Program-made: the position numbers and the translations under genes
IMG/VR virus record: IMGVR_UViG_3300030116_002629
Span: 1-61,426 of that record
DNA length: 61,426 nt
Reading direction: 5' to 3' (one strand)
Source: a virus
Lineage: Duplodnaviria; Caudoviricetes
Part shown: one piece after another, positions 6,621-43,849 of the stretch
How the letters are laid out: each line of letters starts with the position of its first letter
How positions within the stretch are numbered: position 1 is the stretch's first letter
Notes under the pieces: model-generated
Seen by the model: the letters and a program-made list of their open reading frames with translations, nothing else
Told to the model about the DNA's origin: nothing
Databases searched by the model: none

Positions 6621-8236
6621 TGTCTGATAATAATAAAGCAAGACAAAGAGGAATAAAGTTTAGGGAGTGGATTCTTAGCCTATTCAAAAACCCAGCAGCT
6701 CAAGATTATTTAGAAAATAAATATGGTATTACACCTGAAGTATTGCCTCAATATGGTATGTGGGATGCCAATATGGAAGATTGGGGATGGAGTTTTAATC
6801 TTGGACCAGATGGATTCTTATCTAGTGTTGTAATATCTGGAGTAGAAATTCCTATTAAAGAACTTCCAGGCTATGAAGAAGGTTTTAAACAACCATTAGG
6901 TGGTACAGGATTTTGGGGTGGTGTATTTAATTTACCTGCAGAATGGGCTGAGTATGATGTAGAAGCTTTACCTGAAGGTACTGTAAATGTTTTACCAGAA
7001 GCATATGGACCAGCTGAAACTCCTGGTGCAGAATTTTATGGTGAAGCTACAGGTGAGATACAAGAAGAGATGGATGCTGAAGAAGCAGCTGACCCTGATT
7101 TTCAAGCTTTAAAAGAAGGAGCAGTAGAAGAAGAAGAAAAAGAACCTTCATTTTTTACAAGGGAAGATTTTGAAAAAAACACATTATCTGAAGAAGAATG
7201 GAATACTTATCTAGCTAATATTAAAGCTGGTAGTACACCACAAGAAGCATGGGCTTATGCTACAAATGGTGACCCAGCTAAGTTTAATTATGTATGGACA
7301 TGGGATGAAGAAGCAAAGAGAAATAAACCAGCTTATTATTATGACCCAGAAATTAGTGAAAGTCCAATTCCAATACCTGTAGCTGCTCAGCCAAGTGAGC
7401 ATATAAATAAAAATCTTTTTATGAGTGGACTTCATAATATGTCTCCAGACGAAATTGAATGGGTAAAAGATTTCTTGATTATGGGTGGTGTAGCAGATGA
7501 AGGTGATTTTGCTGGACATGGTTTTGTTGATAGAAGTTTAGAATTAATTGTAGGAAATATGATTGATATGGCCAATATGAATTATGGACATATTGCACAT
7601 AAAAGCGATGATTATTATAAATTAATAGAATCTGGAAAAGGACTTTTTGGTGATAATCCACCTGCTATTTTTGAAGATTCAAAATGGTTTGAATGGGGAT
7701 TGTTTTCAGTAGTTGCTTCACAATATGGTATGACCATGGATAAAGCTGCTGAAGTTAAAGCAAAAGAAATAGCAGAAGATACATTAGCTGCTAATGCATT
7801 GCCAAGTAAAGAATCAATGGCTCGTGCTATTAATGATTTAGTTAAAGAAGAAATAGGTGTTGATGCTACTCCAGAACAGGTAAGAGAGTATACAGATTAC
7901 TGGATAGCTAGTCAAACTGAATGGGGTAGACAAATAGAATATGCAAATAAAGTTGCAGAAGTCGGAATGGATATAGAACATTATCATATTAAAACTGGTA
8001 GGACTATGACCATGGAAGAAGTTCAAGCAATGAGAGATGATATAGGTGCTGGAGGAGATGTTTTAGAAGGAATAGTAGGTCAAAGAGAAAAAGTTCCAAC
8101 AGTTACAGACCCTTGGACTGCTACTTACAATTTAGTTGTAGGTGATTTAGCAGGTGAAAAAGAAATTATAGAGGCTGGTAGGAAAAAGAGAGCTAAGCAA
8201 TCTGGTATCTTACAAGCAATGGCAGGTAAGTTTTAA
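6620..8236 (+). CDS. Putative internal virion protein, 538 aa, acidic (allele A)
   Basis: Coupled ORF; distant homologue at 54302-55852 (shared DDIxAGGDVLxGIVGxRE). Confidence 0.55.
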   Translation: MSDNNKARQRGIKFREWILSLFKNPAAQDYLENKYGITPEVLPQYGMWDANMEDWGWSFNLGPDGFLSSVVISGVEIPIKELPGYEEGFKQPLGGTGFWGGVFNLPAEWAEYDVEALPEGTVNVLPEAYGPAETPGAEFYGEATGEIQEEMDAEEAADPDFQALKEGAVEEEEKEPSFFTREDFEKNTLSEEEWNTYLANIKAGSTPQEAWAYATNGDPAKFNYVWTWDEEAKRNKPAYYYDPEISESPIPIPVAAQPSEHINKNLFMSGLHNMSPDEIEWVKDFLIMGGVADEGDFAGHGFVDRSLELIVGNMIDMANMNYGHIAHKSDDYYKLIESGKGLFGDNPPAIFEDSKWFEWGLFSVVASQYGMTMDKAAEVKAKEIAEDTLAANALPSKESMARAINDLVKEEIGVDATPEQVREYTDYWIASQTEWGRQIEYANKVAEVGMDIEHYHIKTGRTMTMEEVQAMRDDIGAGGDVLEGIVGQREKVPTVTDPWTATYNLVVGDLAGEKEIIEAGRKKRAKQSGILQAMAGKF

Positions 8237-11200
8237 TGGCTGAAGGAATTTCAAAAGAAGAGTTTATAAAGGCGTTAAAAGCTAATACTACAATACCTGA
8301 AGCTGCAAAAGCTACTTTGATAGAAGCATTAGAAAATGCACCAGCTAAACAAAAGTTTGATTCAAGAGTAAAAGATTATCTAGATGGAATAAAGAACGGA
8401 TACTTAGAAGTAGATGAATTAATAGGTTTCTTAGAAGATGAATTTGGATATGATAAATTTTCAGGAACTTTTGGTGACCCAGAAGCAGCCAAAGAAGTAA
8501 CAAAGAAAGCTAAAGAAACTACATCTAAAGAAGCTCAAGCTAAAGCTGATAAAGTTACTGAAGCTCCAGATGTTGCTAAACAAGCTGTATTAGAAGGTAA
8601 AGATAAGAAAGTTACACTTGTTGACGAATGGAAAAGAGCAGATGTTAAAAAAGATGTAGGTTTCTTGTATTTGTTTGGTGACAATCTTGCAGATGCTGAA
8701 AGTGGAGTTATTCCTAAAAGTACACAAGCTGTAATTAGAGGTTTAGAAAATGCTATAGGTATTCCAACAAGAATATCAAAGAGTGAAGATTTTCAACCAG
8801 AAGATTTTGAAAGATGGAAAGAACTAATTGATGAACAATTGGCATTAGCTGAAGCTGATGGTAGGCCAATTAAAATATCTAAAGGTGGTATGGCTACAGA
8901 TAAAGGTAAAAAACTTCCTGCTAATTTTAAAGAACATTTAGCTATAAAAATAAATAATTTAGCTGGAGAAGAATTATTTGGTCCAGATATGAAACAAGGA
9001 ACTTCTAATACATCAAAAAGAATAGTTGCAAGTGGAGGTACAGTACGAGCTATGCGTGGTGGTGAATTAGGTAATCCATTTTATTATAAAGGTAGTGGTA
9101 AATCAGATGAAATAGTAAAAGTAGGTACAGATAAATCTTCCACCGTAGTAATGCCAGAAGGAAGTACTGAAGATGATTTAGTTAAAAAAGTTGTTGAGCT
9201 ACATAAAGACTGGTTAACTTGGACACGATTACCTGATAATTTAGATGATGACCAATTGTTTGAATTACAAGCCCTGAGAGATAAACAATTAAGAATTATG
9301 GCTAATTTACCTGATGATTATACATTAGAATATTACAGACCAGATGCTGAATCTTCGCATGCTAAAACATTAGTAGATTTTATAGATAATGCAAAAAAAG
9401 ATATGGAGGAAGTAGATAGAAGTACTATAGGCCAAAGTGATGACCCTTATTTTGATACATCAAGAGATGTGTTAGACCTAACACTTGAACTATCAAGTAA
9501 AGGAGATGAGTTTGGTCAACAGTTCTCTGCTTTAAATGCTACTTTTAAAGAAGGTGAATATGCAGGAAGAACTATAGAAGATGTATGGCAAAATGAAATT
9601 AAAAAATCTGGTAAAGGTAAACCACCTGCAGAAGGAAGTGTACTATTTGGTAAATCTCTTGAAGATAGTAAACTTGCTTATCAAGAATTGTGGGAAATGT
9701 GGGCTGTTGAGAATCCTAGATTAATAGCTGAGTTACAAGATAAAGTTAATGAAGGATATCAATTAACAGATTGGTATGCAAGAAATAAAGACCCTAATAA
9801 AACAGTAAATCAAGCAGAAGCTTTAACTAACATAATTTATAATTTAAATAATGAAGAAAAAGCTATCAAAGCAGATGATGCTAAAAGTAGACAAGTTCCA
9901 TTTGAAAAGGTAAACGCTAGTGACCCAGGACCTGGAGCATCAAGAGCACAATATGATAACTGGGCCGTAAGAACTGGGGATAATTATTTAGCTGCTGCTA
10001 AAGCAGAAGGGTTTACTCTTGACTTTACTACTGAAGATAAAGGTAGTGGTAGTACTAAGAAGTCAGGTACTTATGAACCAAACTTAAAAATAATGAGAAC
10101 ATTTCCTCATTTAAAAGGATTAACTGATGAAGAAATACTAAATGCAACTTATAAACAAATTAAATTAACAAAAGACCTTAAATTTGCAAACCCAGATGAA
10201 GTAGCAGAAATAGCTGCATTAGTAGCAAAAGCTTTAAACAATGGTAAAACAATTAATGTTGCAGGTAATCAAGTGTATAGGTTTCCAGGTAAAACTCAAA
10301 ATGATGTCGATAGATTGTTTGCAGAATTTATGGATATGGTTCAAGATAATCCAGTTACTGATTGGAGTAATGCTGTTATTAGAAGTGGTGGCCAAAATGG
10401 ATTTGATTTATCTGGTTTAAGATGGGCCAACTTCTTTAAAATACCTTTTAGATTACATACTGGTAAAACTAAGTTATTTAGAAAAATAGGTGGTGGAGAT
10501 GTAGTAGGTGATATAAATGAATTTATTCCTTTATTACAATTTGATGAAAATGGTAAATTTAATAATGAACTATTAAAAGCACCAAAGAAAACTACTTCAG
10601 TTGATAAAGCTACAACTCAACCAAAAACAACTGAGAAGTTACCTCCTGATACTAGTAAAACTCTTAAAAGGTTAAACAGCGAATTTGAAAGTGTTAAAAA
10701 TTCTCCTAAAGCTATTAGAGACCAATGGTGGAAATCATTAACAGATATGGAAAGAGATTATATTAAAACCATTATAGAAAAGAAAAATGTTAAAGCATCA
10801 GCTGCAGGTACACCAGATGTTAAAGCAGTAGCAGAACCAGATATACCTACTAGAAAAACAGGACAAATGGAACTAGAACATTTTTGGTTAGATAAAGCAT
10901 ACAATGAAACGATACCTGTTTCAAGTATTGATGGTGCTTCTAGTTGGAAACGATATGTTGCTTATGGAACTAAAATATACGATTGGGAAACAAATCAAAG
11001 TAATTTAATAAATGGGAAAGCAGCTGGAACAGCATATGAACCTGTACAAATATTAAGAGGTTATCAAAAAGGTATAGTACTTCCTGAGACAATGGCTGAT
11101 ATAACTAAAAATCCTCAAAGTTTTGTTAAGGATGGAGAAGCTACTTGGCAAAGAACAAAACCAGGAGAATACGACCCTAGAACAGTTCAAAGTGTAGATA

Positions 11201-12792
11201 AAAAAACTGGTGAAGTTAAAAAAATACCAGGTGTTGAACCAGTTAAATTAGAAGGAGGTTCAGCAGAAGTTAAAGGTTTAATTCAAGAAGGAGACATTAT
11301 AACTGCAGGATTTGCAAGTGACGGTGAAAAAAATATTCTTAGATATGTTAATCAAATAACAGATGTAGGAGCTAGGCCTGCAGGTGGATTAGGTGTTAAT
11401 TATGGTGTACCAGTTAAAGTAGTAAAAGCTTGGCAATTACCAGAACAAATTACTGAAGAATTTTTTGAAACACCATTAGCTAAAAAAATGGCTGAATCTT
11501 TAAATCTTACCGAAGAGGCATTAAGAGAAAAATTAATGCTTGGTAAAAAGAATAAACAAGGTCAAAATAGTATGCAACCTTTTAATTCAAAGAAATTTTG
11601 GAATGGATGGTTTTATGAAATAGAACCTATTGCATTGAATGATGAAAATTATAAATGGGAAGAAGTACAACAAAAACATTTACAAGCTGATATTGAAACA
11701 GATGTTGCTATAAAGAACTGGATGGGTCATAAATATGGAATAAAAAACTTAGCTGCAGTTGGTGGTTTATTAATGAGACTAGCTCCTATAGTTGATTATG
11801 GTGAGTATGCATATGGTTTTGGTGTTAAAGGTTTTAATGCTTTAGTTAAACAAGCAGAGAGAGGATTTATAGCAGCTCAAGCTAATAAATGGATACCTGG
11901 AAATATGATATATTCTAAATTAGCTAGAGAAGTTGGAGATGTAAGAAAAGGCCTTTTACCTAAAACTAGAGGTTTCTTAGGTGAAATGGGTACTAGAGCT
12001 AAAATTACAGGATTTGGTGGTAGAGAAGCAGCTAAAGGAGCACATACAACAGGAGAACTTTTTCAAAGTAAAATAGGTAAGAGAGTAGTAGCTAGGCCTG
12101 CTACAGGTACAGTTAGAGCTGTAGGTTTGTATGAAAAATATAACTTCCTTTATGGTTTAGCTTCTGGGTTGTTGTTATCTTCAATAGAAGCATTAGGTAT
12201 TATTTCTAGAGATACTATTGGTGAAAATAATATCAGAACTCAACTAGGTGGAGATTATGAAGCATGGGCTGAAAGCAATGGAATCTTAGATAAAATAGGA
12301 CCTTGGCCATTAATATCTAGTTTGGAAAGAGCTGAGTCACTAGGTTATTTAGATGAAGGATTTACAGAAGATTATATTAATCAAACAAATACTAAATGGA
12401 TGGGAGTAGTACACGAATTTCTAGGTACAGAACATTATGACCAAATGGATAAAGTTAATGTTATTTGGCAAGATGGCAAAAGACCTAGAGGTTGGTTTAC
12501 TAGTTTCAATGATATCTTTGGATTAAGTTCTGATGGTGCAATAGCAAATGCTGGTGTTCTTCCTAGAACTGGTTTAGCTCCTGCTATTAAAAGGTCTCCA
12601 ATAGTTTCAGGTATTGAGATACCATTTGAGAATTGGTTCTTACCTAAAGTAGGATTAGAAAGCTGGGTAACAGAAGATAGGCCTGCAACAATTCAAGATG
12701 AAGAAGATTTAGCTAATCAAATAGGACAAATACCTGCTACAGTAGATAATAACGCATGGTTAGGAAACATAGCTGACTTTGGAGATTATTAA
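8236..12792 (+). CDS. Polyvalent putative virion cargo protein, 1518 aa (FGDN-motif domain, DUF4326-like, NADAR-like, SLOG/YpsA-like and ASCH-like domains, conserved C-terminal region)
   Basis: Motifs LYLFGDN..QAVIRGLENAIGIPT; GELGNPF..HAKTL; LELSSKGD..FSALNA..GRTIEDVWQ; RTGDN..INVAGN..IRSGGQNGFD; C-terminus shared with 55852-58386. Confidence 0.6.
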   Translation: MAEGISKEEFIKALKANTTIPEAAKATLIEALENAPAKQKFDSRVKDYLDGIKNGYLEVDELIGFLEDEFGYDKFSGTFGDPEAAKEVTKKAKETTSKEAQAKADKVTEAPDVAKQAVLEGKDKKVTLVDEWKRADVKKDVGFLYLFGDNLADAESGVIPKSTQAVIRGLENAIGIPTRISKSEDFQPEDFERWKELIDEQLALAEADGRPIKISKGGMATDKGKKLPANFKEHLAIKINNLAGEELFGPDMKQGTSNTSKRIVASGGTVRAMRGGELGNPFYYKGSGKSDEIVKVGTDKSSTVVMPEGSTEDDLVKKVVELHKDWLTWTRLPDNLDDDQLFELQALRDKQLRIMANLPDDYTLEYYRPDAESSHAKTLVDFIDNAKKDMEEVDRSTIGQSDDPYFDTSRDVLDLTLELSSKGDEFGQQFSALNATFKEGEYAGRTIEDVWQNEIKKSGKGKPPAEGSVLFGKSLEDSKLAYQELWEMWAVENPRLIAELQDKVNEGYQLTDWYARNKDPNKTVNQAEALTNIIYNLNNEEKAIKADDAKSRQVPFEKVNASDPGPGASRAQYDNWAVRTGDNYLAAAKAEGFTLDFTTEDKGSGSTKKSGTYEPNLKIMRTFPHLKGLTDEEILNATYKQIKLTKDLKFANPDEVAEIAALVAKALNNGKTINVAGNQVYRFPGKTQNDVDRLFAEFMDMVQDNPVTDWSNAVIRSGGQNGFDLSGLRWANFFKIPFRLHTGKTKLFRKIGGGDVVGDINEFIPLLQFDENGKFNNELLKAPKKTTSVDKATTQPKTTEKLPPDTSKTLKRLNSEFESVKNSPKAIRDQWWKSLTDMERDYIKTIIEKKNVKASAAGTPDVKAVAEPDIPTRKTGQMELEHFWLDKAYNETIPVSSIDGASSWKRYVAYGTKIYDWETNQSNLINGKAAGTAYEPVQILRGYQKGIVLPETMADITKNPQSFVKDGEATWQRTKPGEYDPRTVQSVDKKTGEVKKIPGVEPVKLEGGSAEVKGLIQEGDIITAGFASDGEKNILRYVNQITDVGARPAGGLGVNYGVPVKVVKAWQLPEQITEEFFETPLAKKMAESLNLTEEALREKLMLGKKNKQGQNSMQPFNSKKFWNGWFYEIEPIALNDENYKWEEVQQKHLQADIETDVAIKNWMGHKYGIKNLAAVGGLLMRLAPIVDYGEYAYGFGVKGFNALVKQAERGFIAAQANKWIPGNMIYSKLAREVGDVRKGLLPKTRGFLGEMGTRAKITGFGGREAAKGAHTTGELFQSKIGKRVVARPATGTVRAVGLYEKYNFLYGLASGLLLSSIEALGIISRDTIGENNIRTQLGGDYEAWAESNGILDKIGPWPLISSLERAESLGYLDEGFTEDYINQTNTKWMGVVHEFLGTEHYDQMDKVNVIWQDGKRPRGWFTSFNDIFGLSSDGAIANAGVLPRTGLAPAIKRSPIVSGIEIPFENWFLPKVGLESWVTEDRPATIQDEEDLANQIGQIPATVDNNAWLGNIADFGDY

Positions 12793-14033
12793 TGGAAGAA
12801 AATAAAGCACAAATACTTAAAGTTGTAGATGCAGATGGAAATGAAACTGGTGATTTTTATGTCATTGTAGATACAGGTGGAGTTAAATTTGTATTTAAAC
12901 CTACTCAAACATATGAAGAAACATTAGAAATATATAAAGATGTTATAGAAGTAGAAGAAACAGATTCAACAGAACTAGATTTTGAAAAAAGATTTATTGA
13001 TGATGATTTAATGGTGTATTGGGGAGACATAGACCAGTACACAGATACTACTGAAGATGTTATTAACAGTATTAAAACAGCTAGTGCTAATGAATCATGG
13101 TGGAAAAATGAGAACTTTAGAAATGCTTATGTAGATATCTGGGAAAATAACTATGATGATGTTACAGATGTATTTAATTCTGACCAATTCCTTGCTGATT
13201 TAAGAAACTCTAGTGCTATAGGTGCTGCATTTGGTGAAGATGGAATAACTAAAGCAACTTGGAATAGGTCTATTGATGAAAGATTAAATCCAGAACAATT
13301 TATATTGGATGATGATTTTGCAAAAACAATGGTATATGAAACAGCTATTGCAGGTTTAGGTCCTGATGGTGCTGATATTGTTAATGACAATAAAGATTTA
13401 AAACGAACTTTAGATTTGTTAGCCTTTAAATACAACAATGGACATTTTGGTGAAGTAGGTAGTGATAATGCTAAAGCACATTTGAGTGTTCAAATTACAG
13501 CTTTGATTGACCCTTCATCTAGATTAGAAAATGGTGGTTATTATGAATTAGAATCAGATGTAGCTAATTCTATTGATGGTATAGAAATACCAACTACTAC
13601 TAGAAAAGAAAGTGAAATACAAGAAATACTTGACCAATGGGTACCAGAAAATCAACATAGTACATTTAATGTAGCTGATGAAGCTGCAAAGTTAAGAAGA
13701 AATCCTTTGTATAAAACAGAATTCGTTGAAAAAGCTAAGGATGCTAAATTTGCACAATACCCTATGTATGATAGAAATGTAGATTGGACTACTGTTTTAA
13801 ATAGAGGTATAGCTTTAATTGAAAATGCTTGGGGAACTACTCCAAAAGATGGTGACCCTATCTTACATGAAGTATTAACATTAAACGATACTAATAAAGC
13901 AAATGCATATTTGAAAGCTGAAGGTTTGAAAATAGGTAATGAAAAGGTTAGTAACGATTATGCTAAAGCTGTAGCTCAAGCTTACGGTGATGATATAATC
14001 AGAACACCTGGATATGTGGAAGGAAGGCCATAA
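12792..14033 (+). CDS. Putative internal virion protein, 413 aa (allele A)
   Basis: Coupled ORF; homologue at 58388-59608. Confidence 0.55.
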   Translation: MEENKAQILKVVDADGNETGDFYVIVDTGGVKFVFKPTQTYEETLEIYKDVIEVEETDSTELDFEKRFIDDDLMVYWGDIDQYTDTTEDVINSIKTASANESWWKNENFRNAYVDIWENNYDDVTDVFNSDQFLADLRNSSAIGAAFGEDGITKATWNRSIDERLNPEQFILDDDFAKTMVYETAIAGLGPDGADIVNDNKDLKRTLDLLAFKYNNGHFGEVGSDNAKAHLSVQITALIDPSSRLENGGYYELESDVANSIDGIEIPTTTRKESEIQEILDQWVPENQHSTFNVADEAAKLRRNPLYKTEFVEKAKDAKFAQYPMYDRNVDWTTVLNRGIALIENAWGTTPKDGDPILHEVLTLNDTNKANAYLKAEGLKIGNEKVSNDYAKAVAQAYGDDIIRTPGYVEGRP

Positions 14034-15010
14034 TGGCACAACCATTTGTTGAAGGCGAAAATTTACAGATATGGTTATATTCTCCTGATGGACAAAGAGT
14101 AAAAAAGCAATCGGGTAGAAGAAAAGGTGAAAACCAATCTGAAGCTGATTATTTTATTAATGAGTTAGGTTATACAACTTATAATCCTAAAGCTGGAAAA
14201 ATAGAAGATATAAGAGACATAGAAGAAGGCACACAGCGTGCTAATCTCTTATTTAGTTTTATGCCTGAATCAGTTAAGAATGAATTTGCTAAATCATGGG
14301 TAGAATTAGGAGATGTTGAATTAGCTAAAGCTAAAGCTAGAACTACACCTGCATGGGAAAAAGAGTTTGGTTTTTTAAGAAGAAAAGATGGTTCTTTAGT
14401 TATGTCTGAAATAGAAGCTGTAGCTACTAAAGCAGCTTATAGAGAAACATTAGGAGAAGTAGGTATTGTAGATACTTCAGGATTTGAACAACAGTTTGAA
14501 CAGATGATTACTGGTGAAGTATCAGCACAAGAGTTCCAACAAAGAATAGATACTGTATGGAATACTGTTAAAAACAATATACCTCAAGTAGAGTCAATGT
14601 TTAGAAATCAATACAATATAGATTCAGATACTCCTACTATATTTGCTGCTTTAATTAATCCAGAGATACAAGATAAATTATTAAAAGGTGATTTAGTATC
14701 ATTAAGCATAGGAGCAGAAGCTAAAGCTGGTGGCTTTAATAGAAGTTTTGCAAGATTTGATGCACTTAGAAAAGCTGGTTTAGACCAGAAAGGAGCTAGA
14801 CAACTATATCAAACAGCTGAACCATTACTTGAAAGAGCTGGTTCAATAGGTAATGCATTAGGTATAGAGACATTAGAAGCTGCTGCTGTAGGTGACATGA
14901 AAGCACAACAACAAGTATCAAGAGCACAGTCAGAGATACTATCCGAAAGTAGTACTGTGGTAGGAGCTGCTAAAAATAATAAACAAGTTAGTGGACTTTT
15001 AGAACAATAA
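14033..15010 (+). CDS. Putative internal virion protein, 325 aa (allele A)
   Basis: Coupled ORF; homologue at 59608-60582 with an unrelated N-terminal ~60 aa. Confidence 0.55.
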   Translation: MAQPFVEGENLQIWLYSPDGQRVKKQSGRRKGENQSEADYFINELGYTTYNPKAGKIEDIRDIEEGTQRANLLFSFMPESVKNEFAKSWVELGDVELAKAKARTTPAWEKEFGFLRRKDGSLVMSEIEAVATKAAYRETLGEVGIVDTSGFEQQFEQMITGEVSAQEFQQRIDTVWNTVKNNIPQVESMFRNQYNIDSDTPTIFAALINPEIQDKLLKGDLVSLSIGAEAKAGGFNRSFARFDALRKAGLDQKGARQLYQTAEPLLERAGSIGNALGIETLEAAAVGDMKAQQQVSRAQSEILSESSTVVGAAKNNKQVSGLLEQ

Positions 15011-15019
15011 GTGTATAAT
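15011..15019 (+). promoter_or_regulatory. -10 box (gtgTATAAT) for the scaffold/capsid operon
   Basis: Perfect TATAAT at 15014-15019 directly after a stop codon; conserved at 60586-60591; same 9-mer at 31077-31085. Confidence 0.65.
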
Positions 15020-15026
15020 AAAGTTT

Positions 15027-15204
15027 AAGCGTTGCAAGGTCCGCTTTAAATGACCGCAAACCAGCTTTCAGGGCCTGCGTAGAAAGCTTGTACTAAAACC
15101 GCAGAGTAAGGACTTAGGATTAAAACCCTACCAGATTCTAAGTCAAGTGTGAAGGTAGGGCCGCAACTAATAGCCACGGGATTAGTTTGTAAGGTAAAAC
15201 CGTG
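15027..15204 (+). ncRNA. Structured 5' leader RNA with four tandem H-type pseudoknots
   Basis: Four stems, each with a loop complementary to a downstream segment; changes in allele B fall in loops or give G-U pairs. Confidence 0.75.
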
Positions 15205-15217
15205 TGGAGGTACGATT

Positions 15218-15682
15218 ATGAGTGAATTTGACGGTATAGAAAATACTGGCGTAAAAGCAATGCGAGATACTATTGACCGCAAAAATGAAGAGATAGCTAA
15301 ATTACAAGCTGAACTTCATGAGCATAAGGATGCAAAACTAAATACTGTTGTAAAACAGATAGGTTTAAATCCAGACAATGGTTTCGGTAAAGCATTAAAA
15401 CAAGTGTATGACGGTGACGCAACAGTCGAAGCTGTCAGTGAGTTTGCTAAAACTGAGTATAGTTATGAGCCAACAGGAGGATTTCAGGAAGTCACACAGA
15501 CTGAACTCCCACCAGTAGTTCAAGACGATGCAAGGGCTAGAGTAGCTTCACTTGATGATTATTCACAAAGTGATGTGCCAAGAGATGTTCTGAACGACCT
15601 TCAGGAAATCATTGCAAAGGGTACTCCGAAAGATAGTATCCGTGCAAAACTTACTCTGATGGAAGACGAAAAGAACAAATAA
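15218..15682 (+). CDS. Capsid scaffolding protein (allele A)
   Basis: ATG 15218 after GGAGG (15206-15210); coiled-coil, acidic, directly upstream of the capsid gene. Confidence 0.7.
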   Translation: MSEFDGIENTGVKAMRDTIDRKNEEIAKLQAELHEHKDAKLNTVVKQIGLNPDNGFGKALKQVYDGDATVEAVSEFAKTEYSYEPTGGFQEVTQTELPPVVQDDARARVASLDDYSQSDVPRDVLNDLQEIIAKGTPKDSIRAKLTLMEDEKNK

Positions 15683-15717
15683 GTATAAGTACAAGATAGA
15701 GTTTACGGAGGTAAATT

Positions 15718-16842
15718 ATGGCAGCAATTACGCTGACTAATAACGCTATTTACTCACAGAAGATTAATAACTTTTCTGGTGAGTTATTCCGTGTAGGTGG
15801 TCAAAGAACTCCTTTCTTATCTGCAACTGGTGGATTAAACGGAGGTAAGGTTTTACAATCTACTTTCTGGCAAATCCAAGCAGCTGACAGTCACACAGTT
15901 TCTTCTGAGCCAACAAAAGGCCAAGAAGGAGCACAACCAACTGAATATCTCGGAAGAGATAGAGTTGCGTACACAGGTGTGACTCAGGTATTCCATAAAG
16001 GTGTCAAGATGACCTATACTGCAATGGCGACTTTTCAACATCAAAATCCATTTGACTTGAGTGCAAATATTATTAACTCATCAGATGGTGACGGAACAGT
16101 TACAGCAGCTGATAAATTATCATTATCAGGTGGTAACCCAATTGTTGATGAGTTCTCAGAACAACTAACTCTTGCTCTTGAAAAAGTAGCTCGTGAGGTT
16201 GAATGGTTCGCATTCAATGGTACTTTTGCCGATGGTGCTAATACAACACCAGGTTCAGGTACTCGTGAAATGAGAGGTATTTCAGAATATATTGCATTAA
16301 ATGCTAATGCTAATAACTCAACAGCTCCAGTCGCAACTGGCGGAAACATTTATTATAATGACTCTTCTGGTGACGGTTCTGGTGCTGCTAGAGTTCTTTC
16401 ATGGGATGCAATCGCAGGTGCTATGAAGCGTCTATATGATGCTCACGCACCAATGATTCAACCAGTGCTTTGTGTAAATCCAAAGCAACTACTTGACCTT
16501 AACAAGGAATTGTTAACTGGTACAGTAGGTATTACTGGAACTATCCTACCAAGAGATAGAAGTATCGCTGGTATCGACATTGATACTATCGTTACTCCTT
16601 TCGGTGCAATTGGTCTTATGGTCATCGACCCTAACATCATGCCTGCCGATTGTGCATTTATCCTTGACTTTGCTTTCATACAACCAGTATTCACAAATAT
16701 CCCAGGATATGGTACTGTGTTCGTGAGAGACTTAGACCAAGACGATTATGCAAGAGTTGGAAAAGCAGTTTACATGGAAATGGGATATGACTTTGGTCCG
16801 CCAAGTTATCATCTCAAATTCGTTGATGCTGATTCAGCATAA
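15718..16842 (+). CDS. Major capsid protein (HK97 fold, SU10-MCP/DUF5309-like)
   Basis: 374 aa, strong GGAGGT RBS; TPFLS, EGA..P, TQVFHKGV, EFSEQ..ALEKVAREVE, REMRGI and IVTPFG motifs. Confidence 0.85.
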   Translation: MAAITLTNNAIYSQKINNFSGELFRVGGQRTPFLSATGGLNGGKVLQSTFWQIQAADSHTVSSEPTKGQEGAQPTEYLGRDRVAYTGVTQVFHKGVKMTYTAMATFQHQNPFDLSANIINSSDGDGTVTAADKLSLSGGNPIVDEFSEQLTLALEKVAREVEWFAFNGTFADGANTTPGSGTREMRGISEYIALNANANNSTAPVATGGNIYYNDSSGDGSGAARVLSWDAIAGAMKRLYDAHAPMIQPVLCVNPKQLLDLNKELLTGTVGITGTILPRDRSIAGIDIDTIVTPFGAIGLMVIDPNIMPADCAFILDFAFIQPVFTNIPGYGTVFVRDLDQDDYARVGKAVYMEMGYDFGPPSYHLKFVDADSA

Positions 16843-16860
16843 ATAAAAAATTGAAGATTA

Positions 16861-16890
16861 GGGTGGGAATCCACCTCCTGCCCTTTTCTT
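16861..16890 (+). terminator. Probable intrinsic terminator after the capsid gene
   Basis: GGTGG-GAAT-CCACC hairpin followed by a pyrimidine/T tract. Confidence 0.5.
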
Positions 16891-16891
16891 C

Positions 16892-16900
16892 TGCTATAGT
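16892..16900 (+). promoter_or_regulatory. Extended -10 promoter TGcTATAGT
   Basis: TGnTAnnnT ending 10 nt before ATG 16910; same 9-mer at 20976-20984 (+) and 36548-36556 (-). Confidence 0.55.
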
Positions 16901-16909
16901 AAGTGAGAT

Positions 16910-17242
16910 ATGATTAAAGTAAAAACAGTATTAATAGATGTATCAGCAGATGCAAGTAATTCAGTTAGTTTTAAAACTGATGGATTGTTATTATCAGGAA
17001 TTAAATTTCCTGCAGCAATGACAGGTTCTGCAATTACATTTGACCACTCAATGGATAACTCCACATGGTCTGATGTAAAAGAAACAGATGGAACAGAAGT
17101 AAGCTACACTGTATCAGCTGGAGATGTTATAAGACTTGACCCTAGTGGTTGGGCTTTTGCAGCAGAAGGTTGGTTAAGAATTACATCTGGAGGTACAGAA
17201 GCTGCAGATAGAAGTTTAGAAGTATATCTTAGACATAGTTAG
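16910..17242 (+). CDS. Small beta-rich structural protein, 110 aa
   Basis: Between capsid and tail genes; beta-strand-rich composition. Confidence 0.55.
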   Translation: MIKVKTVLIDVSADASNSVSFKTDGLLLSGIKFPAAMTGSAITFDHSMDNSTWSDVKETDGTEVSYTVSAGDVIRLDPSGWAFAAEGWLRITSGGTEAADRSLEVYLRHS

Positions 17243-17250
17243 GAGGTTTT

Positions 17251-18258
17251 GTGAGTAGTACAATAGCCGACCTAATTAATAGGACATACAGAGAATATTT
17301 AGAACCAGTAGATTCTGTAGAGAGTTATTCCTACATTACTTCTGGTATATCTGATTCAGCTACAAGTATTACCTATGACGGTAATTTATTTTCAGTTGAA
17401 GAAGAAGACGCATTAGATGCTGGTGCAATTATAGAAATTGGCCAAGAGTTAATGTACACAACAGCTCTTAATGCACCTACTAATACAATTACAGTTAAAA
17501 GAGGCCAAAGAGGTACAACAGCTGCTGCACATTCATCAGGAGATTTAATTAAAATAGCTCCTGCATTTCCTCGTAAAAATATTTATGATGCAATTGTTGA
17601 CCAAATTAAAAACTTATACCCTACATTATTTGCTGTAGAAACACTAGATGTTACAAGTGGTACAGGTTATAGAATATTAGGTAACTATGGTTCTGACCAA
17701 GATAGTTATAATTATTTAGTTACTCCAATTAAAGCTATATCTCAATATACAGATTGGAGTGCAGGTTCAGACCAAACAGGATTAACTTATAAACCTGTAG
17801 GAATTGAATTAATAGATTTACCTAATCCATTTACTTGGACAGATGATACAAGTACATCAAGAACTAAAACATATACAACAGGACCTGATGTAGTACATGC
17901 AATACAGTTTTCAGGTATAGCTTCAGGCCATACAACTTATGTAACTTTTAAAAAGAAATTTGTAATACCAACAGCTGAAACTACTACATTAACAGCAGTA
18001 GGTTTAGAAACAGAATATGAACCAATAGTTATGGCAGGTGTAGCTGCACAGTTGCTTGCTGGAAAAGATATCAATATGGTGGATGCTCCTTATATAACTG
18101 AACAATTAGAAGCTGCAGTTTATCCTGTAGGTAGTTCAAGTTCTATTAGAAATTCATTATTACAATATCAACAAGTATTAATCCAACAAGCTAGAAGTAA
18201 TTTGAGGTCTAAATATCCGGAGGCTGTCCTATTACAAGGCGTTAATTATCCTTCCTAA
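17251..18258 (+). CDS. Head-tail adaptor (tail tubular protein A-like) with a beta-rich insertion
   Basis: AGGAGG RBS; N-terminal TIADLINRT helix; IEIGQELM..TITVKRGQRGTTAAAH insert; position. Confidence 0.6.
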   Translation: MSSTIADLINRTYREYLEPVDSVESYSYITSGISDSATSITYDGNLFSVEEEDALDAGAIIEIGQELMYTTALNAPTNTITVKRGQRGTTAAAHSSGDLIKIAPAFPRKNIYDAIVDQIKNLYPTLFAVETLDVTSGTGYRILGNYGSDQDSYNYLVTPIKAISQYTDWSAGSDQTGLTYKPVGIELIDLPNPFTWTDDTSTSRTKTYTTGPDVVHAIQFSGIASGHTTYVTFKKKFVIPTAETTTLTAVGLETEYEPIVMAGVAAQLLAGKDINMVDAPYITEQLEAAVYPVGSSSSIRNSLLQYQQVLIQQARSNLRSKYPEAVLLQGVNYPS

Positions 18259-20225
18259 TGCCTAGAGTAGCAACTACTGATTTAATAAATAACCCAAAGA
18301 GATATGGGTATGACTTTAGAGTTGACAGATTATTACTTCGTGCTGCTATAAGTCCTGAAAGGCCTATGACTATACAGTCATCAGATGTTAATGCTAATGA
18401 TAATGTAAATGTTAAACAAAATCCTGAAGACTTTACATCTAACTTAGGCCGTGTATTTTCAAGAAATAACTTTAGTGCAGGCCAAGGATTAGATACAGCA
18501 CATAGAGCTAATGGACAACCTGATGATGTTAATAGATTTTGGGATAGTAAAGGTGTCGATGTATTTCATAGTGATGATGAAACATCATACAATGTACATT
18601 TATTAAACACAACACAAGACGAAGGAATTAACTTTAGTGGTAGCAATAACTACTTGACACAAACAACAGATGGAAAATTATGGGTAACTGATGCTAATAA
18701 AATATATAAATCAACAGACAATGGAGATAACTGGTCTCAAGAAACTACAGGTAATACACATAACTTTACAGGTATAACTTCTGTTGGTAATAGAGTATTT
18801 GCTACTACTGCTAATAGTACAACTGCATCAGAACTTATTGAGTGGAATGGTTCTAGTTGGAATGCAAGAACAACTGCACAAACATCAGCTGGTGGTTTAA
18901 ATGGTATATGGTTTTACAAAGGCGTATTAATTATTGCTGGAGATGATGGCACTGTAGAAAGAGTATGGATTATATCTCCTTTTAATCAAACATGGGATAG
19001 TTCAGATTTAACAGATGGTGGTGCTTTATTTAGTTTTGAAAGTACACATCATGTTTCACAAGTTGTAGATGCTGGTGCTGTAATACTTGTAGCTTCAACT
19101 AATGGTGATATATATTCTGTCAAAGATAATGCAGGTACTTGGGCATTAAGAGGCCAAACTAATATACCTTTTGAAGAAGTACACTCCATAGCTGCTGCTG
19201 AAGGTATAGTATTTTTTGGTACAAAAGATAAATCAAAAGATGTAGGAAGATTTTATAAAGCACAATTAGTAGTTGCTGATGATTTGTATGTATTAAATGA
19301 AAGACAATTAATTAAAGAATGGAGTATATCAGGACAAGACACAACACCTAAACATATGTTTGTATCTAGAGATAGTGTTTATTGTGGTATTAAAGAAAGC
19401 GGTAGTGAATCATATTTGTGGCGATATTACTTACCAACAGGTGGTATAGCCAGAGATTTGAAAGCAGGTGCTGGTGGTTTCGTTACTGGAATTACTAACT
19501 CAAATGATAAATTTGTAATATGTGTAGCTGGTGCAGACATATGGAGACAAACTTCTACATATGAAAGTACAGGTTATCTTATAACATCTGCTGCAGATTT
19601 CTTTACTGCTGAACAAAAACAATTTGTAGGTGCAGAAATATCTACTAAAAACTTAGCTGCTGATACAAGTGTATCATTGAATTTTAGTACTTCATTTGAA
19701 GATTTAGACAATCCAGATAGCAGTAATTATGTACAAGCTTTATCTCAGATAACAGGTACTGGTGATATTGAATCACAAATTTCTCCTGTTTCTAGATATA
19801 TTATAGGAAAATTAGTATTAAATTCTGATACTGGTGTTAATACACCTTATGTTAAATCTATACAATTTAGAGCACTAGCTAGGCCTGAACTTGTAGTTGC
19901 ACAAATACCTGTAAATATATCAGATAGAGTAGAAAGGCCTGGTAGAAAACCAATTAAAGTTAAAAACTTAGGAGATGCTATATACGAAGAATTAAGAACA
20001 TTAGAAGGTGATTCTGTTACATTAGAAATATTTAATCCTAATGAAGTTATTAGAGGTGTAGTAGAGCAAATAAGTTATCCTGTTACAACTAATTCTGAAG
20101 TAGGTTCTGTTACAACATATGCTACTATTACTATAAGAGGTACTAGACAGCCTACTGTTTCACAAGTATCATCTACAGTTGTACTTGGTATAGGAAAATT
20201 AGGAGAGATAAGGTTTGGTGGATAA
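18258..20225 (+). CDS. Tail nozzle (tail tubular protein B-like), probable beta-propeller
   Basis: 655 aa, beta-rich, Asp-box-like STDNGDNW; follows the adaptor as in podoviruses. Confidence 0.6.
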   Translation: MPRVATTDLINNPKRYGYDFRVDRLLLRAAISPERPMTIQSSDVNANDNVNVKQNPEDFTSNLGRVFSRNNFSAGQGLDTAHRANGQPDDVNRFWDSKGVDVFHSDDETSYNVHLLNTTQDEGINFSGSNNYLTQTTDGKLWVTDANKIYKSTDNGDNWSQETTGNTHNFTGITSVGNRVFATTANSTTASELIEWNGSSWNARTTAQTSAGGLNGIWFYKGVLIIAGDDGTVERVWIISPFNQTWDSSDLTDGGALFSFESTHHVSQVVDAGAVILVASTNGDIYSVKDNAGTWALRGQTNIPFEEVHSIAAAEGIVFFGTKDKSKDVGRFYKAQLVVADDLYVLNERQLIKEWSISGQDTTPKHMFVSRDSVYCGIKESGSESYLWRYYLPTGGIARDLKAGAGGFVTGITNSNDKFVICVAGADIWRQTSTYESTGYLITSAADFFTAEQKQFVGAEISTKNLAADTSVSLNFSTSFEDLDNPDSSNYVQALSQITGTGDIESQISPVSRYIIGKLVLNSDTGVNTPYVKSIQFRALARPELVVAQIPVNISDRVERPGRKPIKVKNLGDAIYEELRTLEGDSVTLEIFNPNEVIRGVVEQISYPVTTNSEVGSVTTYATITIRGTRQPTVSQVSSTVVLGIGKLGEIRFGG

Positions 20226-20251
20226 TAAATGTATGGTAAGATAGGACAATA

Positions 20252-20803
20252 ATGACAGCTCAAAACTTAAATTATAGCAACTTTTTTGAAACTACTTTAG
20301 ATGGTGCAGTAGGTGCTTCAGATGGAAACTTTACACTTACAGCAGCACCTACAAGTAATGGTACCGCTGTTATATCTGCACCTTTTTATTTAGTAATAGA
20401 CCCTGATAGTGCAACTAAAAGAGAAGTAGTATTAGTAACAGCATCATCAACTACAACTATGTCAACTGTTACTAGAGATGTAGAAGGCAGACATTCACCA
20501 GACCCATCACATGATGATGGAACTGTTGTTCGTATGTCAGTAGTTGGAGAAATGTTTAAAGATTTACATGACCAATTAACAGCAGGTACATTAACTTTAA
20601 CAAATAAAACTTTAACAACTCCTACATTAACAAGTCCTGTATTAAATACAGGTGCTAGTGGTACTGCAATTAAAGATGAAGATAATATGGCATCTAACTC
20701 AGCTACACATTTGGCAACACAACAATCAATTAAACAATATGTAGATACACAAGTATCTGCTAATTCAGGTGCAAGTCTTGGACTTGTAATAGCTTTATCA
20801 TAA
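20252..20803 (+). CDS. Tail fibre proximal/anchor protein
   Basis: TLTNKTLTTPTLTSPVLN repeats; DEDNMASNSATHLATQQSIKQYVD; hydrophobic GLVIALS end; TGgTAAGAT promoter at 20234-20242. Confidence 0.65.
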   Translation: MTAQNLNYSNFFETTLDGAVGASDGNFTLTAAPTSNGTAVISAPFYLVIDPDSATKREVVLVTASSTTTMSTVTRDVEGRHSPDPSHDDGTVVRMSVVGEMFKDLHDQLTAGTLTLTNKTLTTPTLTSPVLNTGASGTAIKDEDNMASNSATHLATQQSIKQYVDTQVSANSGASLGLVIALS

Positions 20804-20997
20804 TGGGTATTATAATTATGCTCAAAGAAGGTGGAAGTCTAGCAATAGACACTATTGGTAATTTACCGATAGATGAAGATATAGATTTATTACCTGATGC
20901 TGGTGGTGTATCATTAGCATTTAGGTTAATAATGGAAGCAATTTCTGTTACTAACACGACAAGTTCAACTAGTCGTGCTATAGTAATGGGAGTATAG
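20803..20997 (+). CDS. Small tail-associated hypothetical protein
   Basis: Coupled to the previous stop; hydrophobic RAIVMGV end resembles the previous gene's end. Confidence 0.45.
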   Translation: MGIIIMLKEGGSLAIDTIGNLPIDEDIDLLPDAGGVSLAFRLIMEAISVTNTTSSTSRAIVMGV

Positions 20998-21018
20998 AAA
21001 TATATGGAGAAAAAATAA

Positions 21019-21360
21019 ATGGCAACAGAAGTATTTAAAAATGGTTATCTAAATGTAACTAGCTCTGCCCAAACAATATATACAGCACCTACAGATGCAG
21101 GTGATGTTACTATTGTATTGTCACTAAGAGTAACAAATGTTGATGGTTCTGCAGATGATACAATCATTGCAGAAGTTAAAGATGTTTCTTCAGGGGATGC
21201 TAAAATAGCACACACTATGACAGTTCCTGCTGATAGCTCTTTAGAATTAGCAGGTACATCAAAACTTGTACTAATGGCAGGAGATTACATACAGCTTACT
21301 GGTGGTGCGGCATCAGGTGACTTAGAAGCGTTTATATCGGTTTTAGAAATACAAGCATAA
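21019..21360 (+). CDS. Small tail-fibre adaptor-like protein, 113 aa
   Basis: GGAG RBS; TIYTAP..IVLSLRVTNVDG..VPADSSLEL..KLVLMAGD pattern typical of phage tail modules. Confidence 0.6.
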   Translation: MATEVFKNGYLNVTSSAQTIYTAPTDAGDVTIVLSLRVTNVDGSADDTIIAEVKDVSSGDAKIAHTMTVPADSSLELAGTSKLVLMAGDYIQLTGGAASGDLEAFISVLEIQA

Positions 21361-21372
21361 CAAGGAGTAACT

Positions 21373-22296
21373 ATGGCTAAATATGGTTACACAGGTGCTA
21401 AACCAACACAATCTAGTTCTGCCAATACTGGCGTATTTGGTGTTAATGATGTCGTGGGATTATTACAAAATGGTAATTACAAATTACAAGCTATCGATGT
21501 CGAATACCTTGTAGTAGCTGGTGGAGGTAGCGGTACTACATCAGGTGGAGGTGGAGCAGGTGGTTTAAGAAATTCATATGCTTCTGAAAATACAGGAGGC
21601 GGTGTATCAGGTGAAACACCAATAAGTCTTATACCAGATGGTTCAACTACATATACAGTTACTGTTGGTGCTGCACAAAATAATTCAGTTTTTTCAACAA
21701 TTACATCTACATCAGGTGGTAATGGTGGTGTTAATAATGGTAGCAACGGTGCATCCGGTGGTTCTGGAGGTGGCGGTGGTTACAATGGTGGTGATGGTGG
21801 TTCTGGTACTTCTGGACAAGGTCATGATGGTGGTGATGCTAATACTAGTGCTGAACCTAACCAAGGTGGTGGAGGTGGTGGAGCTTCTGCAGCTGGTACA
21901 ACACGACATGGTGGCGATGGTTTACAATCTTCAATAACAGGTTCTGCTACTTATTATGCTGGTGGTGGCGGTGGTGGTTCATATCGTGCTGACCCATGGA
22001 GTTCTGGCAACAAAGGTGTTGGTGGACAAGGTGGTGGAGGAAATGGTGGTATTCGTTCATCTCCTTATACTGTTATAGCACCTACTGCAGGAACAGCTAA
22101 TACTGGTGGTGGCGGTGGAGGCTCAGGACATAATGGTGATGGTGGTACATCAGGAGGTTCAGGAGTTGTAATATTGCGTTATCCTGCAGGTAATACAATT
22201 ACAGTAGGTTCAGGTTTGACATCATCTACTGCAACTGATGGTAGTAGTAAAGTAACAACATTTACTGCAGGAACAGATACAATAACATTTAGTTAG
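21373..22296 (+). CDS. Glycine-rich tail fibre protein
   Basis: VEYLVVAGGG...GSGGSGGG...YYAGGGGG...GGSGVVILRY, typical of phage Gly-rich domains. Confidence 0.8.
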   Translation: MAKYGYTGAKPTQSSSANTGVFGVNDVVGLLQNGNYKLQAIDVEYLVVAGGGSGTTSGGGGAGGLRNSYASENTGGGVSGETPISLIPDGSTTYTVTVGAAQNNSVFSTITSTSGGNGGVNNGSNGASGGSGGGGGYNGGDGGSGTSGQGHDGGDANTSAEPNQGGGGGGASAAGTTRHGGDGLQSSITGSATYYAGGGGGGSYRADPWSSGNKGVGGQGGGGNGGIRSSPYTVIAPTAGTANTGGGGGGSGHNGDGGTSGGSGVVILRYPAGNTITVGSGLTSSTATDGSSKVTTFTAGTDTITFS

Positions 22297-24364: not shown

Positions 24365-24667
24365 ATGGCAACAAAAGAAGAACTACAAACGCAAGCTGAT
24401 ACTGAAATAGAGGCAGCAAAACCTTTATATGCACAAGTTAACAACGAGCGTAGAGAGTTTACTGATGCTGAGTATGCACAAGCTAAAGTTGATTTAGGAA
24501 ATAAAAAGTGGAATGACCAACAGTTTGGTTATGTACAAGATAGGCAAGAAGCCTACGGTTCTATAGCTGACCAACTTGATATGCAGTACTGGGATGAAGT
24601 AAATGGCACTACAACTTGGAAAGACTTTGTAGCTAAAGTAAAATCAGATAATCCTAAACCTGAATAA
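24365..24667 (+). CDS. Tail fibre assembly chaperone-like protein
   Basis: RQEAYGSIADQLDMQYWD..TTTWKDFVAKVKSDNPKP; AGGAGG RBS. Confidence 0.7.
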   Translation: MATKEELQTQADTEIEAAKPLYAQVNNERREFTDAEYAQAKVDLGNKKWNDQQFGYVQDRQEAYGSIADQLDMQYWDEVNGTTTWKDFVAKVKSDNPKPE

Positions 24668-24674
24668 AATTATA

Positions 24675-24683
24675 TGTTATAAT
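24675..24683 (+). promoter_or_regulatory. Extended -10 promoter TGtTATAAT, probably giving a leaderless mRNA
   Basis: Consensus match with 7 nt to ATG 24691, which has no SD. Confidence 0.6.
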
Positions 24684-24690
24684 GTCCTCT

Positions 24691-24843
24691 ATGGATTTTA
24701 TAACTGGTTTTGTTTTTGGATATGTATGTAAAGAAGTTGTAGCTTATCTTAAAAGATTAAGTGGATATGACTGGGACAATCGTAATTATTATGATGGTGC
24801 TTACGATTGGGATACAGGATTAAATGAAGATGACCTCCCCTAA
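24691..24843 (+). CDS. Small membrane-anchored hypothetical protein, 50 aa (not in the ORF track)
   Basis: MDFITGFVFGYVCKEVVAYLKRLSGYDWDNRNYYDGAYDWDTGLNEDDLP; fills the gap after the promoter. Confidence 0.55.
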   Translation: MDFITGFVFGYVCKEVVAYLKRLSGYDWDNRNYYDGAYDWDTGLNEDDLP

Positions 24844-25021
24844 CGGTAACGGATTTACTCAAAAAGAAATGCTTACTTTAATTTTAGAAGGACAACAAGA
24901 CATAAACAAACGCATAGACGAATTGCACGAAAAAGTTAATCAAAAATTATCAAGACAAGAATTAACTGGGTGGTTAGTTGCTATATCTGCATTAGTAGTA
25001 CTAATCAACAGTGTTATATAG
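24824..25021 (+). CDS. Small coiled-coil protein with a C-terminal TM helix
   Basis: QQDINKRIDELHEKVNQK followed by LTGWLVAISALVVLI. Confidence 0.6.
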   Translation: MKMTSPNGNGFTQKEMLTLILEGQQDINKRIDELHEKVNQKLSRQELTGWLVAISALVVLINSVI

Positions 25022-26819: not shown

Positions 26820-27040
26820 TGCTAAAAAAAATTTGGAATTGGTTTATAACCATAATTAAAGAGACTTTGAATTTGTCGTGGACACTTGTTGGTTTAGTTA
26901 TTGCAACTTTAACTTTAACTGGTAGTGCTCAACAAATTACAGGTCTTGCTACTGTAATTACATTAGTTGTATGGTTATTAACAATAGGGTTTAGAAGTGA
27001 TAAACCTAAAGGTAATAAGAAACAAGGGGTGAGTAGATAA
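26819..27040 (+). CDS. Small two-TM membrane protein (holin-like)
   Basis: Two hydrophobic helices and a basic tail. Confidence 0.6.
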   Translation: MLKKIWNWFITIIKETLNLSWTLVGLVIATLTLTGSAQQITGLATVITLVVWLLTIGFRSDKPKGNKKQGVSR

Positions 27041-27078
27041 TGGATTGCTGTGGTAGCGGTTGTTGCGGAGGTAAATAA
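27040..27078 (+). CDS. Putative 12-aa Cys-rich micropeptide MDCCGSGCCGGK
   Basis: TAATG overlaps at both ends; fills the gap exactly; G-rich SD-like sequence upstream. Confidence 0.5.
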   Translation: MDCCGSGCCGGK

Positions 27079-27290
27079 TGGAAGCAAAAATTAATCTAAG
27101 TCAAATATTGCAAGGTGGTTTAGCTGCTTTAGTTGGCTGGTTATTTAAAACTGTTAACGATTTACAACAAGAAGTAGCAACACTTAAAGCACAAGTACAA
27201 GCTTATCAAGAATCTATTGCAGGATTTAATCAAAACTTAATAGTTATTGAAGAAGTTATTAGAGAAATATTATTTAAGGTAGGAGGATAA
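27078..27290 (+). CDS. TM plus coiled-coil protein (lysis accessory?)
   Basis: GGAGGT RBS; ILQGGLAALVGWLF followed by heptads. Confidence 0.6.
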   Translation: MEAKINLSQILQGGLAALVGWLFKTVNDLQQEVATLKAQVQAYQESIAGFNQNLIVIEEVIREILFKVGG

Positions 27291-43714: not shown

Positions 43715-43744
43715 TTTAACTCCTTTTTTAACTAACATTAACTT

Positions 43745-43782
43745 GTAATAGAGAGAAGAAGTAAAGAATGCGTTAGCATTCT
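43745..43782 (-). promoter_or_regulatory. GTTA-hairpin promoter-like element D
   Basis: AGAATGC-GTTA-GCATTCT at 43765-43782; same flank and spacing as A-C with a different stem sequence. Confidence 0.65.
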
Positions 43783-43849
43783 AAAGTCCTACTATCTCTT
43801 ATTTAATTTAGAATGTATATGAACAAAAGGGAACATATTAGTCTAAATC

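Follow-up and report, generated by a model that had tools for sequence, protein, structure and literature searches.

Four consecutive H-type pseudoknots in the probable 5' untranslated leader of the scaffold-like and capsid mRNA of an uncultured marine tailed phage

Several known RNAs, including the pseudoknot string of tmRNA, the ToxI repeats, the pRNA of phi29 and the xrRNA of flaviviruses, are built from pseudoknots or from covarying loop pairings, and some of them are linked to phages. In T4 gene 32, one pseudoknot is followed by an unstructured tract where gp32 polymerises. The pseudoknot in the 5' leader of the T4 gene 32 mRNA is used for translational autoregulation, as described in part of PMC10690425. 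Bacterial mRNAs are stabilised by 5'-terminal stem-loops according to reference titles in PMC3997798, and the 5' pseudoknot of the tisB mRNA is required for the binding of S1 and the 30S subunit according to a section of PMC7708055. In the pseudoknot array of tobamoviruses, PK2/PK3 are bound by eEF1A (an excerpt of PMC13564737). The element of this study is most likely the structured 5' untranslated leader of an mRNA that encodes a scaffold-like protein and the capsid protein of an uncultured marine tailed phage. The T4 gene 32 operator, the 5' stabiliser hairpins and the tisB standby pseudoknot are its closest analogues in function.

The analysed window is the whole 61,426-nt stretch of the IMG/VR virus record IMGVR_UViG_3300030116_002629, in which a phage genome of about 47.7 kb with a G+C content of 33% is read more than once. 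The genes at 379-15700 reappear in diverged form at 48084-61426, and the ORF pairs between the two passes have lengths of 1938/1935, 538/516, 1518/844, 413/411 and 325/324 aa. The pair of 1518 and 844 aa marks a hypervariable spot. The two passes look like diverged strains, joined either as a chimeric assembly of two variants or as a tandem of relatives. The gene order runs from the terminase through a large nameless ORF at the portal position and several very large ORFs to a 325-aa ORF ending at 15010. It continues with the leader, a 154-aa ORF (15218-15682, + strand) and an SU10-type major capsid gene (15718-16842, + strand; PF17236). The translation of the 154-aa ORF belongs to PHROG 7813, a family of unknown function, and has no Pfam match. 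The term scaffold-like refers to its size and its place ahead of the capsid gene only, its function not being named by any family. The ORFs upstream of the leader likewise received no functional name from Pfam or PHROGs, and neither collection indicated an RNA-binding domain in the proteins flanking it. The DNA of the window has no match among GenBank phages, and the replication-module proteins gave weak matches only. Among deposited capsid proteins, the closest share 24-29% identity with the one encoded here; most belong to phages of Mycobacterium, Propionibacterium and Bifidobacterium, and every named source is an actinobacterial phage. Long intergenic gaps were also observed at 20803-21019, 24667-25011, 26819-27290 and 43738-44239, on the strand of the virion genes or before the terminase gene.

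The sequence-only reading had proposed four consecutive H-type pseudoknots, and all of their eight helices were recovered from the sequence at the positions given for them, on the + strand. PK1 (15027-15059) is composed of the stem S1 (15027-31/15042-46) and the loop-tail helix S2, in which 15032(33)-35 and 15038-41 pair with 15052-59 around a 2-nt bulge. In PK2 (15063-15104), S1 is formed by 15063-69/15082-88 and S2 by 15075-79/15100-04. PK3 (15111-15160) combines S1 at 15111-20/15135-44, with one G-U pair (15118-15137), and S2 at 15126-32/15154-60. PK4 (15165-15204) is made up of S1 at 15165-71/15181-87 and S2 at 15175-79/15200-04. Only the account of PK1 had to be adjusted: both of its helices are present, whereas all of the 8 loop-tail pairs originally drawn are impossible without a connecting base. 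The version that the homologues support has an L1 of 1 nt and about 7 loop-tail pairs, and pair 22-54 forms in 30 of 53 leaders. With the outermost pair of PK1 open, the lengths from PK1 to PK4 are 1, 5, 5 and 3 nt for L1 and 5, 11, 9 and 12 nt for L3, which by the rules of Pleij may suffice for crossing the grooves. The linkers measure 3-6 nt between the pseudoknots and 1 nt from PK4 to the Shine-Dalgarno (SD) sequence. The units had been described as unlike in sequence and alike in topology. No tandem repeat was detected in our search, and the units align at 53% mean column identity.

An alignment-free strict scan was carried out for hairpins with a perfect 5-bp stem and a loop that can pair perfectly over 5 bp with a segment at most 16 nt downstream. 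Three non-overlapping pseudoknots (PK2-4) were detected in 15027-15205, and this number was reached by 0 of 2000 dinucleotide shuffles. It was also reached by 4 of 1021 tiles of the window, two of which are the two alleles of the leader, A and B. The remaining two tiles (179 nt) start at 8821 and 49141, inside large ORFs and at positions that are non-homologous between the two passes; their three pseudoknots are probably due to chance. A narrower version of the scan gave two pseudoknots (P=0.0055). Nested-only folding of the leader yielded z-scores of 0.26 (+ strand) and -0.44 (- strand). Such scoring gives no signal because crossing helices are invisible to it. When the two nested sets were taken separately, the four hairpins amounted to -21.9 kcal/mol and the four loop-tail helices to -27.8 kcal/mol.

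Allele B comprises a promoter and leader at 60583-60785 (+ strand), with the pseudoknot array at 60599-60776 and a score of 184.8 bits against the model R1. Its identity to allele A (15011-15217) is 95% in the genome search and 93.3% in a global alignment. The array itself is 96.1% identical between the alleles, compared with 74.0% and 58.5% DNA identity in the two aligned ORF pairs upstream of the leader. Therefore, the leader is conserved above the upstream genes, as had been noticed. The scaffold-like ORF downstream is 88.4% identical. The seven differences between the arrays comprise one linker change, two conversions of a pair to G-U (15063 and 15166) and four loop changes or indels. The earlier statement that these changes are only compatible and none is double compensatory is right for these two alleles. 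In the wider homologue set, double compensatory changes occur in all four loop-tail helices.

The homologues were obtained through a capsid-protein alignment search of IMG/VR, which gave 233 related places, 80 of which were kept. A full-length leader homologue was found by nhmmer with leader A as the query in 57 of the 80 kept relatives, always just 5' of the scaffold-like ORF. A 14-mer of the PK3 tail matched 98 stretches, including two contigs already in the set. In a MAFFT-only alignment of 52 distinct leaders, the eight helices are 95.6% paired versus 32-40% with the 3' partners slid, and both-side changes appear in 19 of 50 pairs versus 2-6 in the slid controls. A covariance model was also built from the four hairpins only, and 61 leaders (53 distinct) were realigned with it. 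In the 53 distinct leaders, 96.1% of 2644 cells of the eight helices are paired versus 32-38% after sliding, and both-side changes occur in 20 of 50 pairs versus 2-6. The loop-tail pairings, to which this alignment was not fitted, are kept in the homologues (94.2% paired versus 24-45% slid), with both-side changes in 9 of 25 pairs and 62 cells; the slid controls gave 0-4 pairs and 0-18 cells. RNAalifold, run without a supplied structure, recovered three loop-tail helices together with the hairpin of PK4. The eight helices of the original proposal are thus well borne out by the homologous leaders.

At least one both-side change was seen in seven of the eight helices among the 53 leaders. The eighth is S1 of PK2, for which other complementary arms are used instead in the loci L250, L211 and L249. 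S1 of PK1 covaries from GC to AU, and different stems take its place in L220 and in L218/L238. In S2 of PK1, pair 25-50 changes from CG to AU in 3 of 53 leaders, and the GGUC/GACC core is invariant. Pair 71-97 in S2 of PK2 is AU in 41 of 53 leaders and GC in the other 12, with no intermediates. PK3 shows both-side changes in 4 of 7 pairs of S2 and in 4 of 7 pairs of S1, and a different 7-bp S2, itself covarying, is found in the group of L250 and L220. PK4 is paired in 100% of cells, with both-side changes in 5 of 7 pairs of S1 and 3 of 5 pairs of S2. G-U pairs are frequent, for example at pair 166-187 (42 of 53 leaders). Since these would be A-C on the other strand, the folded molecule is the + strand RNA. 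The loops of PK1 and PK2 are the most conserved in the 52-leader alignment. Strongly conserved unpaired stretches are located in the linker between PK2 and PK3, in CAAGUG after the PK3 stem and in the A-rich third loops.

Many isolated column pairs that follow the clades came out of a blind covariation search of the leader alignment, which revealed no additional contiguous long-range helix. Simple covariation counts are inflated by relatedness. Because isolated columns covary by clade, weight was put on contiguous helices, on repeated flips and on unrelated clades. An independent tree was calculated with FastTree from 1.6 kb of downstream coding DNA, a tree that recombination could distort. 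On this tree, the loop-tail pair 71-97 of PK2 flips between A-U and G-C at least five times with no intermediate, a pair of the PK4 stem flips four times, and a loop-tail pair of PK4 changes three times. As judged from these comparisons of sequences, the leader is under strong purifying and compensatory selection.

Further variants were collected with a 14-mer of PK1, and model hits were obtained at 32 of 80 loci. Nine of the 32 were inspected, and the array lies directly ahead of the scaffold-like gene in all nine. L250, L190, L211 and L220 differ from the window in the sequences of the PK2 stem, the PK3 loop-tail helix and PK4, but the arms remain complementary. Two hybrid leaders, L249 (5128-5301, - strand) and L234 (4461-4630, + strand), combine PK1 and PK2 as in the window's clade with a 3' domain of three stems that belongs to another clade, and the stem of PK2 is entirely different there. 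These hybrids indicate that phage lineages exchange the units as modules. Leaders of about 250 nt were also observed in L170 (1812-2066), L218 (6717-6972) and L238 (6924-7178), where PK1 and a PK2-like unit are followed by a long dissimilar 3' part. At each of another 22, more distant loci, the same gene is preceded by a leader of about 130-230 nt. In small alignments judged by eye, two further clades show three pseudoknot-type units apiece and compensatory changes of their own. The strict scan found at least two pseudoknots in 19 of 21 distant leaders, with P<=0.05 in 18 of 21; some of these hits are A/T-rich and may be chance.

The array is preceded by a sigma-70-like promoter (14992-15019, + strand) with a -35-like hexamer at 14992-14997, a 16-nt spacer and the -10 TATAAT at 15014-15019. 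Its score of 10/12 makes it one of three sites tied for the top in 12500-21500. The -10 is invariant in the 52 aligned leaders, and in distant clades canonical -35/-10 pairs occupy the corresponding position. The first helix begins at 15027, 8 nt after the TATAAT as the sequence-only reading had it, and the distance of 7-8 nt past the -10 is found in all three clades. At the other end, the claim that PK4 stops 1 nt ahead of the SD holds, with S2 reaching 15204 and GGAGG occupying 15206-10. The SD and the start codon (ATG, 15218-20) lie within 15206-15220 on the + strand, and GGAGGTAC is invariant in the 52 leaders. The SD is unpaired in the MFE structure and in the RNAalifold consensus, and no conserved anti-SD partner within the leader was seen by eye in the 52-leader alignment.

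These observations bear on the idea that one or more units are riboswitch aptamers sensing a ligand or a condition. With their A-rich third loops, the H-type pseudoknots are similar to small aptamers such as preQ1-I, and PK1 and PK2 have the most conserved loops. A covariance-model check against Rfam 15, whose models cover riboswitches and tmRNA, had been suggested together with the original proposal and gave 0 matches at the gathering score in the whole window. At E<=10, the sole match in 14900-15350 was a 20-nt chance hit inside an ORF. A riboswitch is hardly to be expected here: the leader has no Rfam family match even at that threshold, a conserved alternative pairing that sequesters the SD is absent from the MFE and RNAalifold structures, and the loop and S2 sequences vary freely with modules swapped.

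The transcription unit is closed by a terminator-like hairpin with a T-run (16860-16894, + strand) directly after the capsid gene, and a comparable hairpin ahead of a T-run was found in 60 of 76 relatives. In the window and at the corresponding place in L103-L182, the stem of this hairpin occurs in two versions, and UCCACC is preserved in the loop of both. This motif resembles the 16S anti-SD and is complementary to bases at the leader SD. A 5'-3' kissing interaction between the loop and the SD region was considered and rejected, as the loop is unchanged where the leader has GAGGAGG, not GUGGAGG. The layout of the unit also recalls the put RNAs of HK022, and the nascent leader might modify RNA polymerase in cis and allow read-through into the long downstream virion operon. 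The element is indeed just downstream of a promoter and heads about 16 kb of virion genes on the same strand, and a terminator follows the capsid gene. However, put RNAs consist of two stem-loops, not of pseudoknots as found here. The conserved terminator is better suited to a discrete abundant mRNA with partial read-through, and the close tie of the array to the SD would be unneeded for antitermination. Such a cis-acting modifier of the polymerase is improbable.

Parts of the window are present in marine RNA libraries from several studies. Contigs from four runs of four studies begin at 15027, 15039, 15039 and 15044, with no loose ends listed there. All four run on into the scaffold-like ORF, and two of them reach the capsid gene. 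These starts give a weak hint that 15027-15044 marks the 5' end of the transcript; the ends of contigs are no proof of where a transcript starts, and DNA can be present in RNA libraries. None of the contigs of the four runs lies over 14000-14962, which does not count as absence.

A candidate host was provided by a 1.1-Mb MAG titled Actinomycetota bacterium, in which two related phage-like contigs (54 and 58 kb) were binned. Their capsid identities are 85% (L183) and 68% (L184) and their leaders belong to two clades, one contig carrying the same leader (220 bits) and the other a clade-3 leader. The presence of L183 and L184 in one MAG hints at the host, and also at co-infecting lineages. From the binning and the distant capsid relatives, we infer a probably actinobacterial host. 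WhiB is a frequent mark of actinophages; no WhiB gene was found in the window. The candidate host genome contains an RNase E/G gene (348 bits), and RNase J had no match in this one genome of 1.1 Mb, which may be incomplete. Given that result, the earlier suggestion that the array blocks RNase J gets no support.

The array might also be cut off as a separate stable RNA and act like the phi29 pRNA, as an exonuclease-resistant fragment or as a decoy directed against host defence, for example a type III toxin. The mechanical robustness of pseudoknot strings and the phage context would suit such a role. A pRNA-like separate RNA is nevertheless very unlikely, because the last pseudoknot is 1 nt from the SD and the RNA-library contigs join the leader to the ORF. 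Neither a terminator nor a gap exists before the SD, the units are not sequence repeats, and no Rfam family or tmRNA was matched in the window. The lack of an RNase J match in the possibly incomplete candidate host genome also argues against a separate RNA of this kind.

The sequence-only reading had spoken of a cis-regulatory RNA family. A cis-located structured + strand RNA at the 5' end of the unit is what stands of this claim, and its regulatory function is one that we infer. We propose, with a probability of roughly 50%, that the leader is a 5'-end protective and ribosome-presenting element. The host RNA polymerase would start about 7-8 nt past the TATAAT, and the RNA would fold from its first bases into the four consecutive H-type pseudoknots, beyond the last of which the GGAGG would always be free. 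With its paired 5' end and hardly any single-stranded A/U-rich RNA, the leader would shield this presumably very heavily used mRNA from 5'-end-dependent decay. At the same time, the compact array would hold the ribosome-binding site open and may dock the 30S subunit or S1 adjacent to it. In combination with the terminator behind the capsid gene, the leader would make the message for the proteins of the largest copy number long-lived and highly translated. This protective and ribosome-presenting role is favoured because the first predicted bases are already paired in every clade, little single-stranded A/U-rich RNA is present and a terminator follows. A point against a stabiliser is that one hairpin suffices in the known stabilisers, compared with four pseudoknots here.

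Since one hairpin would protect the message and unpaired motifs are conserved, the main rival is a translational operator. Its ligand would be a phage protein, which could be the free scaffold-like protein, the capsid protein or another RNA-binding protein. By attaching to the ribosome platform at or close to PK4, this protein would trap the 30S subunit or keep it out, and synthesis would be coupled to assembly. Entrapment in S15/rpsO and the autoregulation of the P22 scaffold are precedents for such an operator. A further precedent is gp32, which binds the leader pseudoknot according to a part of PMC10690425. The array always stands directly before the scaffold-like gene (57 of 80 relatives, 22 distant loci and the 9 inspected of 32), and PK4 is 1 nt from the SD. 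The conserved unpaired stretches fit an operator as well, and may suggest a more specific partner. On the other hand, near-identical PK1/PK2 serve scaffold-like proteins with very different N-termini (the window versus L249/L238), modules are swapped between lineages, and the flanking proteins are without a detected RNA-binding domain. Both the operator as such and its assembly-coupled form with PK4 as the target are regarded as tentative possibilities.

A bolder and rather speculative view is that the leader represents an undescribed class of phage RNA, in which a modular rod of stacked H-type pseudoknots stands on a ribosome platform by the SD and is exchangeable unit by unit. The rod could then be an assembly-coupled operator or the bacterial counterpart of nuclease-resistant viral RNAs. 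If this is true, the leader would in either role govern how much of the most abundant virion proteins is made in a widespread marine phage group. The protective and ribosome-presenting role remains our preferred reading. Under any of these readings the leader is worth study, with its length of about 180 nt, its presence in at least 57 of the 80 relatives, a collection that offers 233 capsid relatives, several RNA-library studies and natural module swaps. Therefore, it is a tractable model for the folding and stacking of pseudoknot arrays and for the tuning of capsid output in phages without cultured hosts. It might further serve as a portable element for expression or stability.

In the literature consulted, which includes papers represented by excerpts, no bacterial or phage leader of four consecutive covariation-supported pseudoknots was found. 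The catalogue of 10,006 candidate viral RNAs in PMC10690425, of which a part was available, may contain it unnamed. A preprint on phage ncRNA arrays (10.64898/2026.09.22.753630) was considered as well. In its accessible portion, it deals with reverse-transcriptase-linked units of about 150 nt and not with this leader. In architecture, the leader comes closest to the pseudoknot string in the 3' UTR of tobamoviruses, in which consecutive H-type pseudoknots with short linkers also lie in an untranslated region of a viral mRNA. However, that string belongs to the 3' UTR of a eukaryotic RNA virus and lies beside a tRNA-like end, whereas the present one forms the 5' leader in a DNA phage and ends at the SD.

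Other pseudoknot-built RNAs differ more clearly. ToxI is made of tandem repeats next to an endoRNase toxin gene; here no tandem repeat exists and the flanking genes are virion genes. The phi29 pRNA is a separate transcript of about 170 nt with loops that pair between molecules, whereas this array ends 1 nt before the SD and contigs span the leader and the ORF. Among the functional analogues, T4 gene 32 has its single pseudoknot and an unstructured tract that extends to the RBS of a gene for an ssDNA-binding protein, in contrast to four pseudoknots with linkers of 1-6 nt and a scaffold-like downstream gene. In the tisB +42 mRNA, a 5'-proximal pseudoknot serves the binding of S1 and the 30S subunit according to a section of PMC7708055, but the ribosome-binding site is sequestered about 100 nt away, and here the SD is free and adjacent. 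In the leaders of ompA and papA of E. coli and aprE of B. subtilis, pairing begins at the very 5' end of an abundant mRNA, as far as the reference titles in PMC3997798 indicate, and the present leader may be like them in this. In our case, the first helix lies 8 nt after the -10, and one contig starts exactly at 15027. These three stabilisers are single hairpins, whereas the phage leader has four covarying pseudoknots with conserved loops. The leader belongs to the known structured cis-acting leaders of phage mRNAs, with an architecture that is unusual and well supported.
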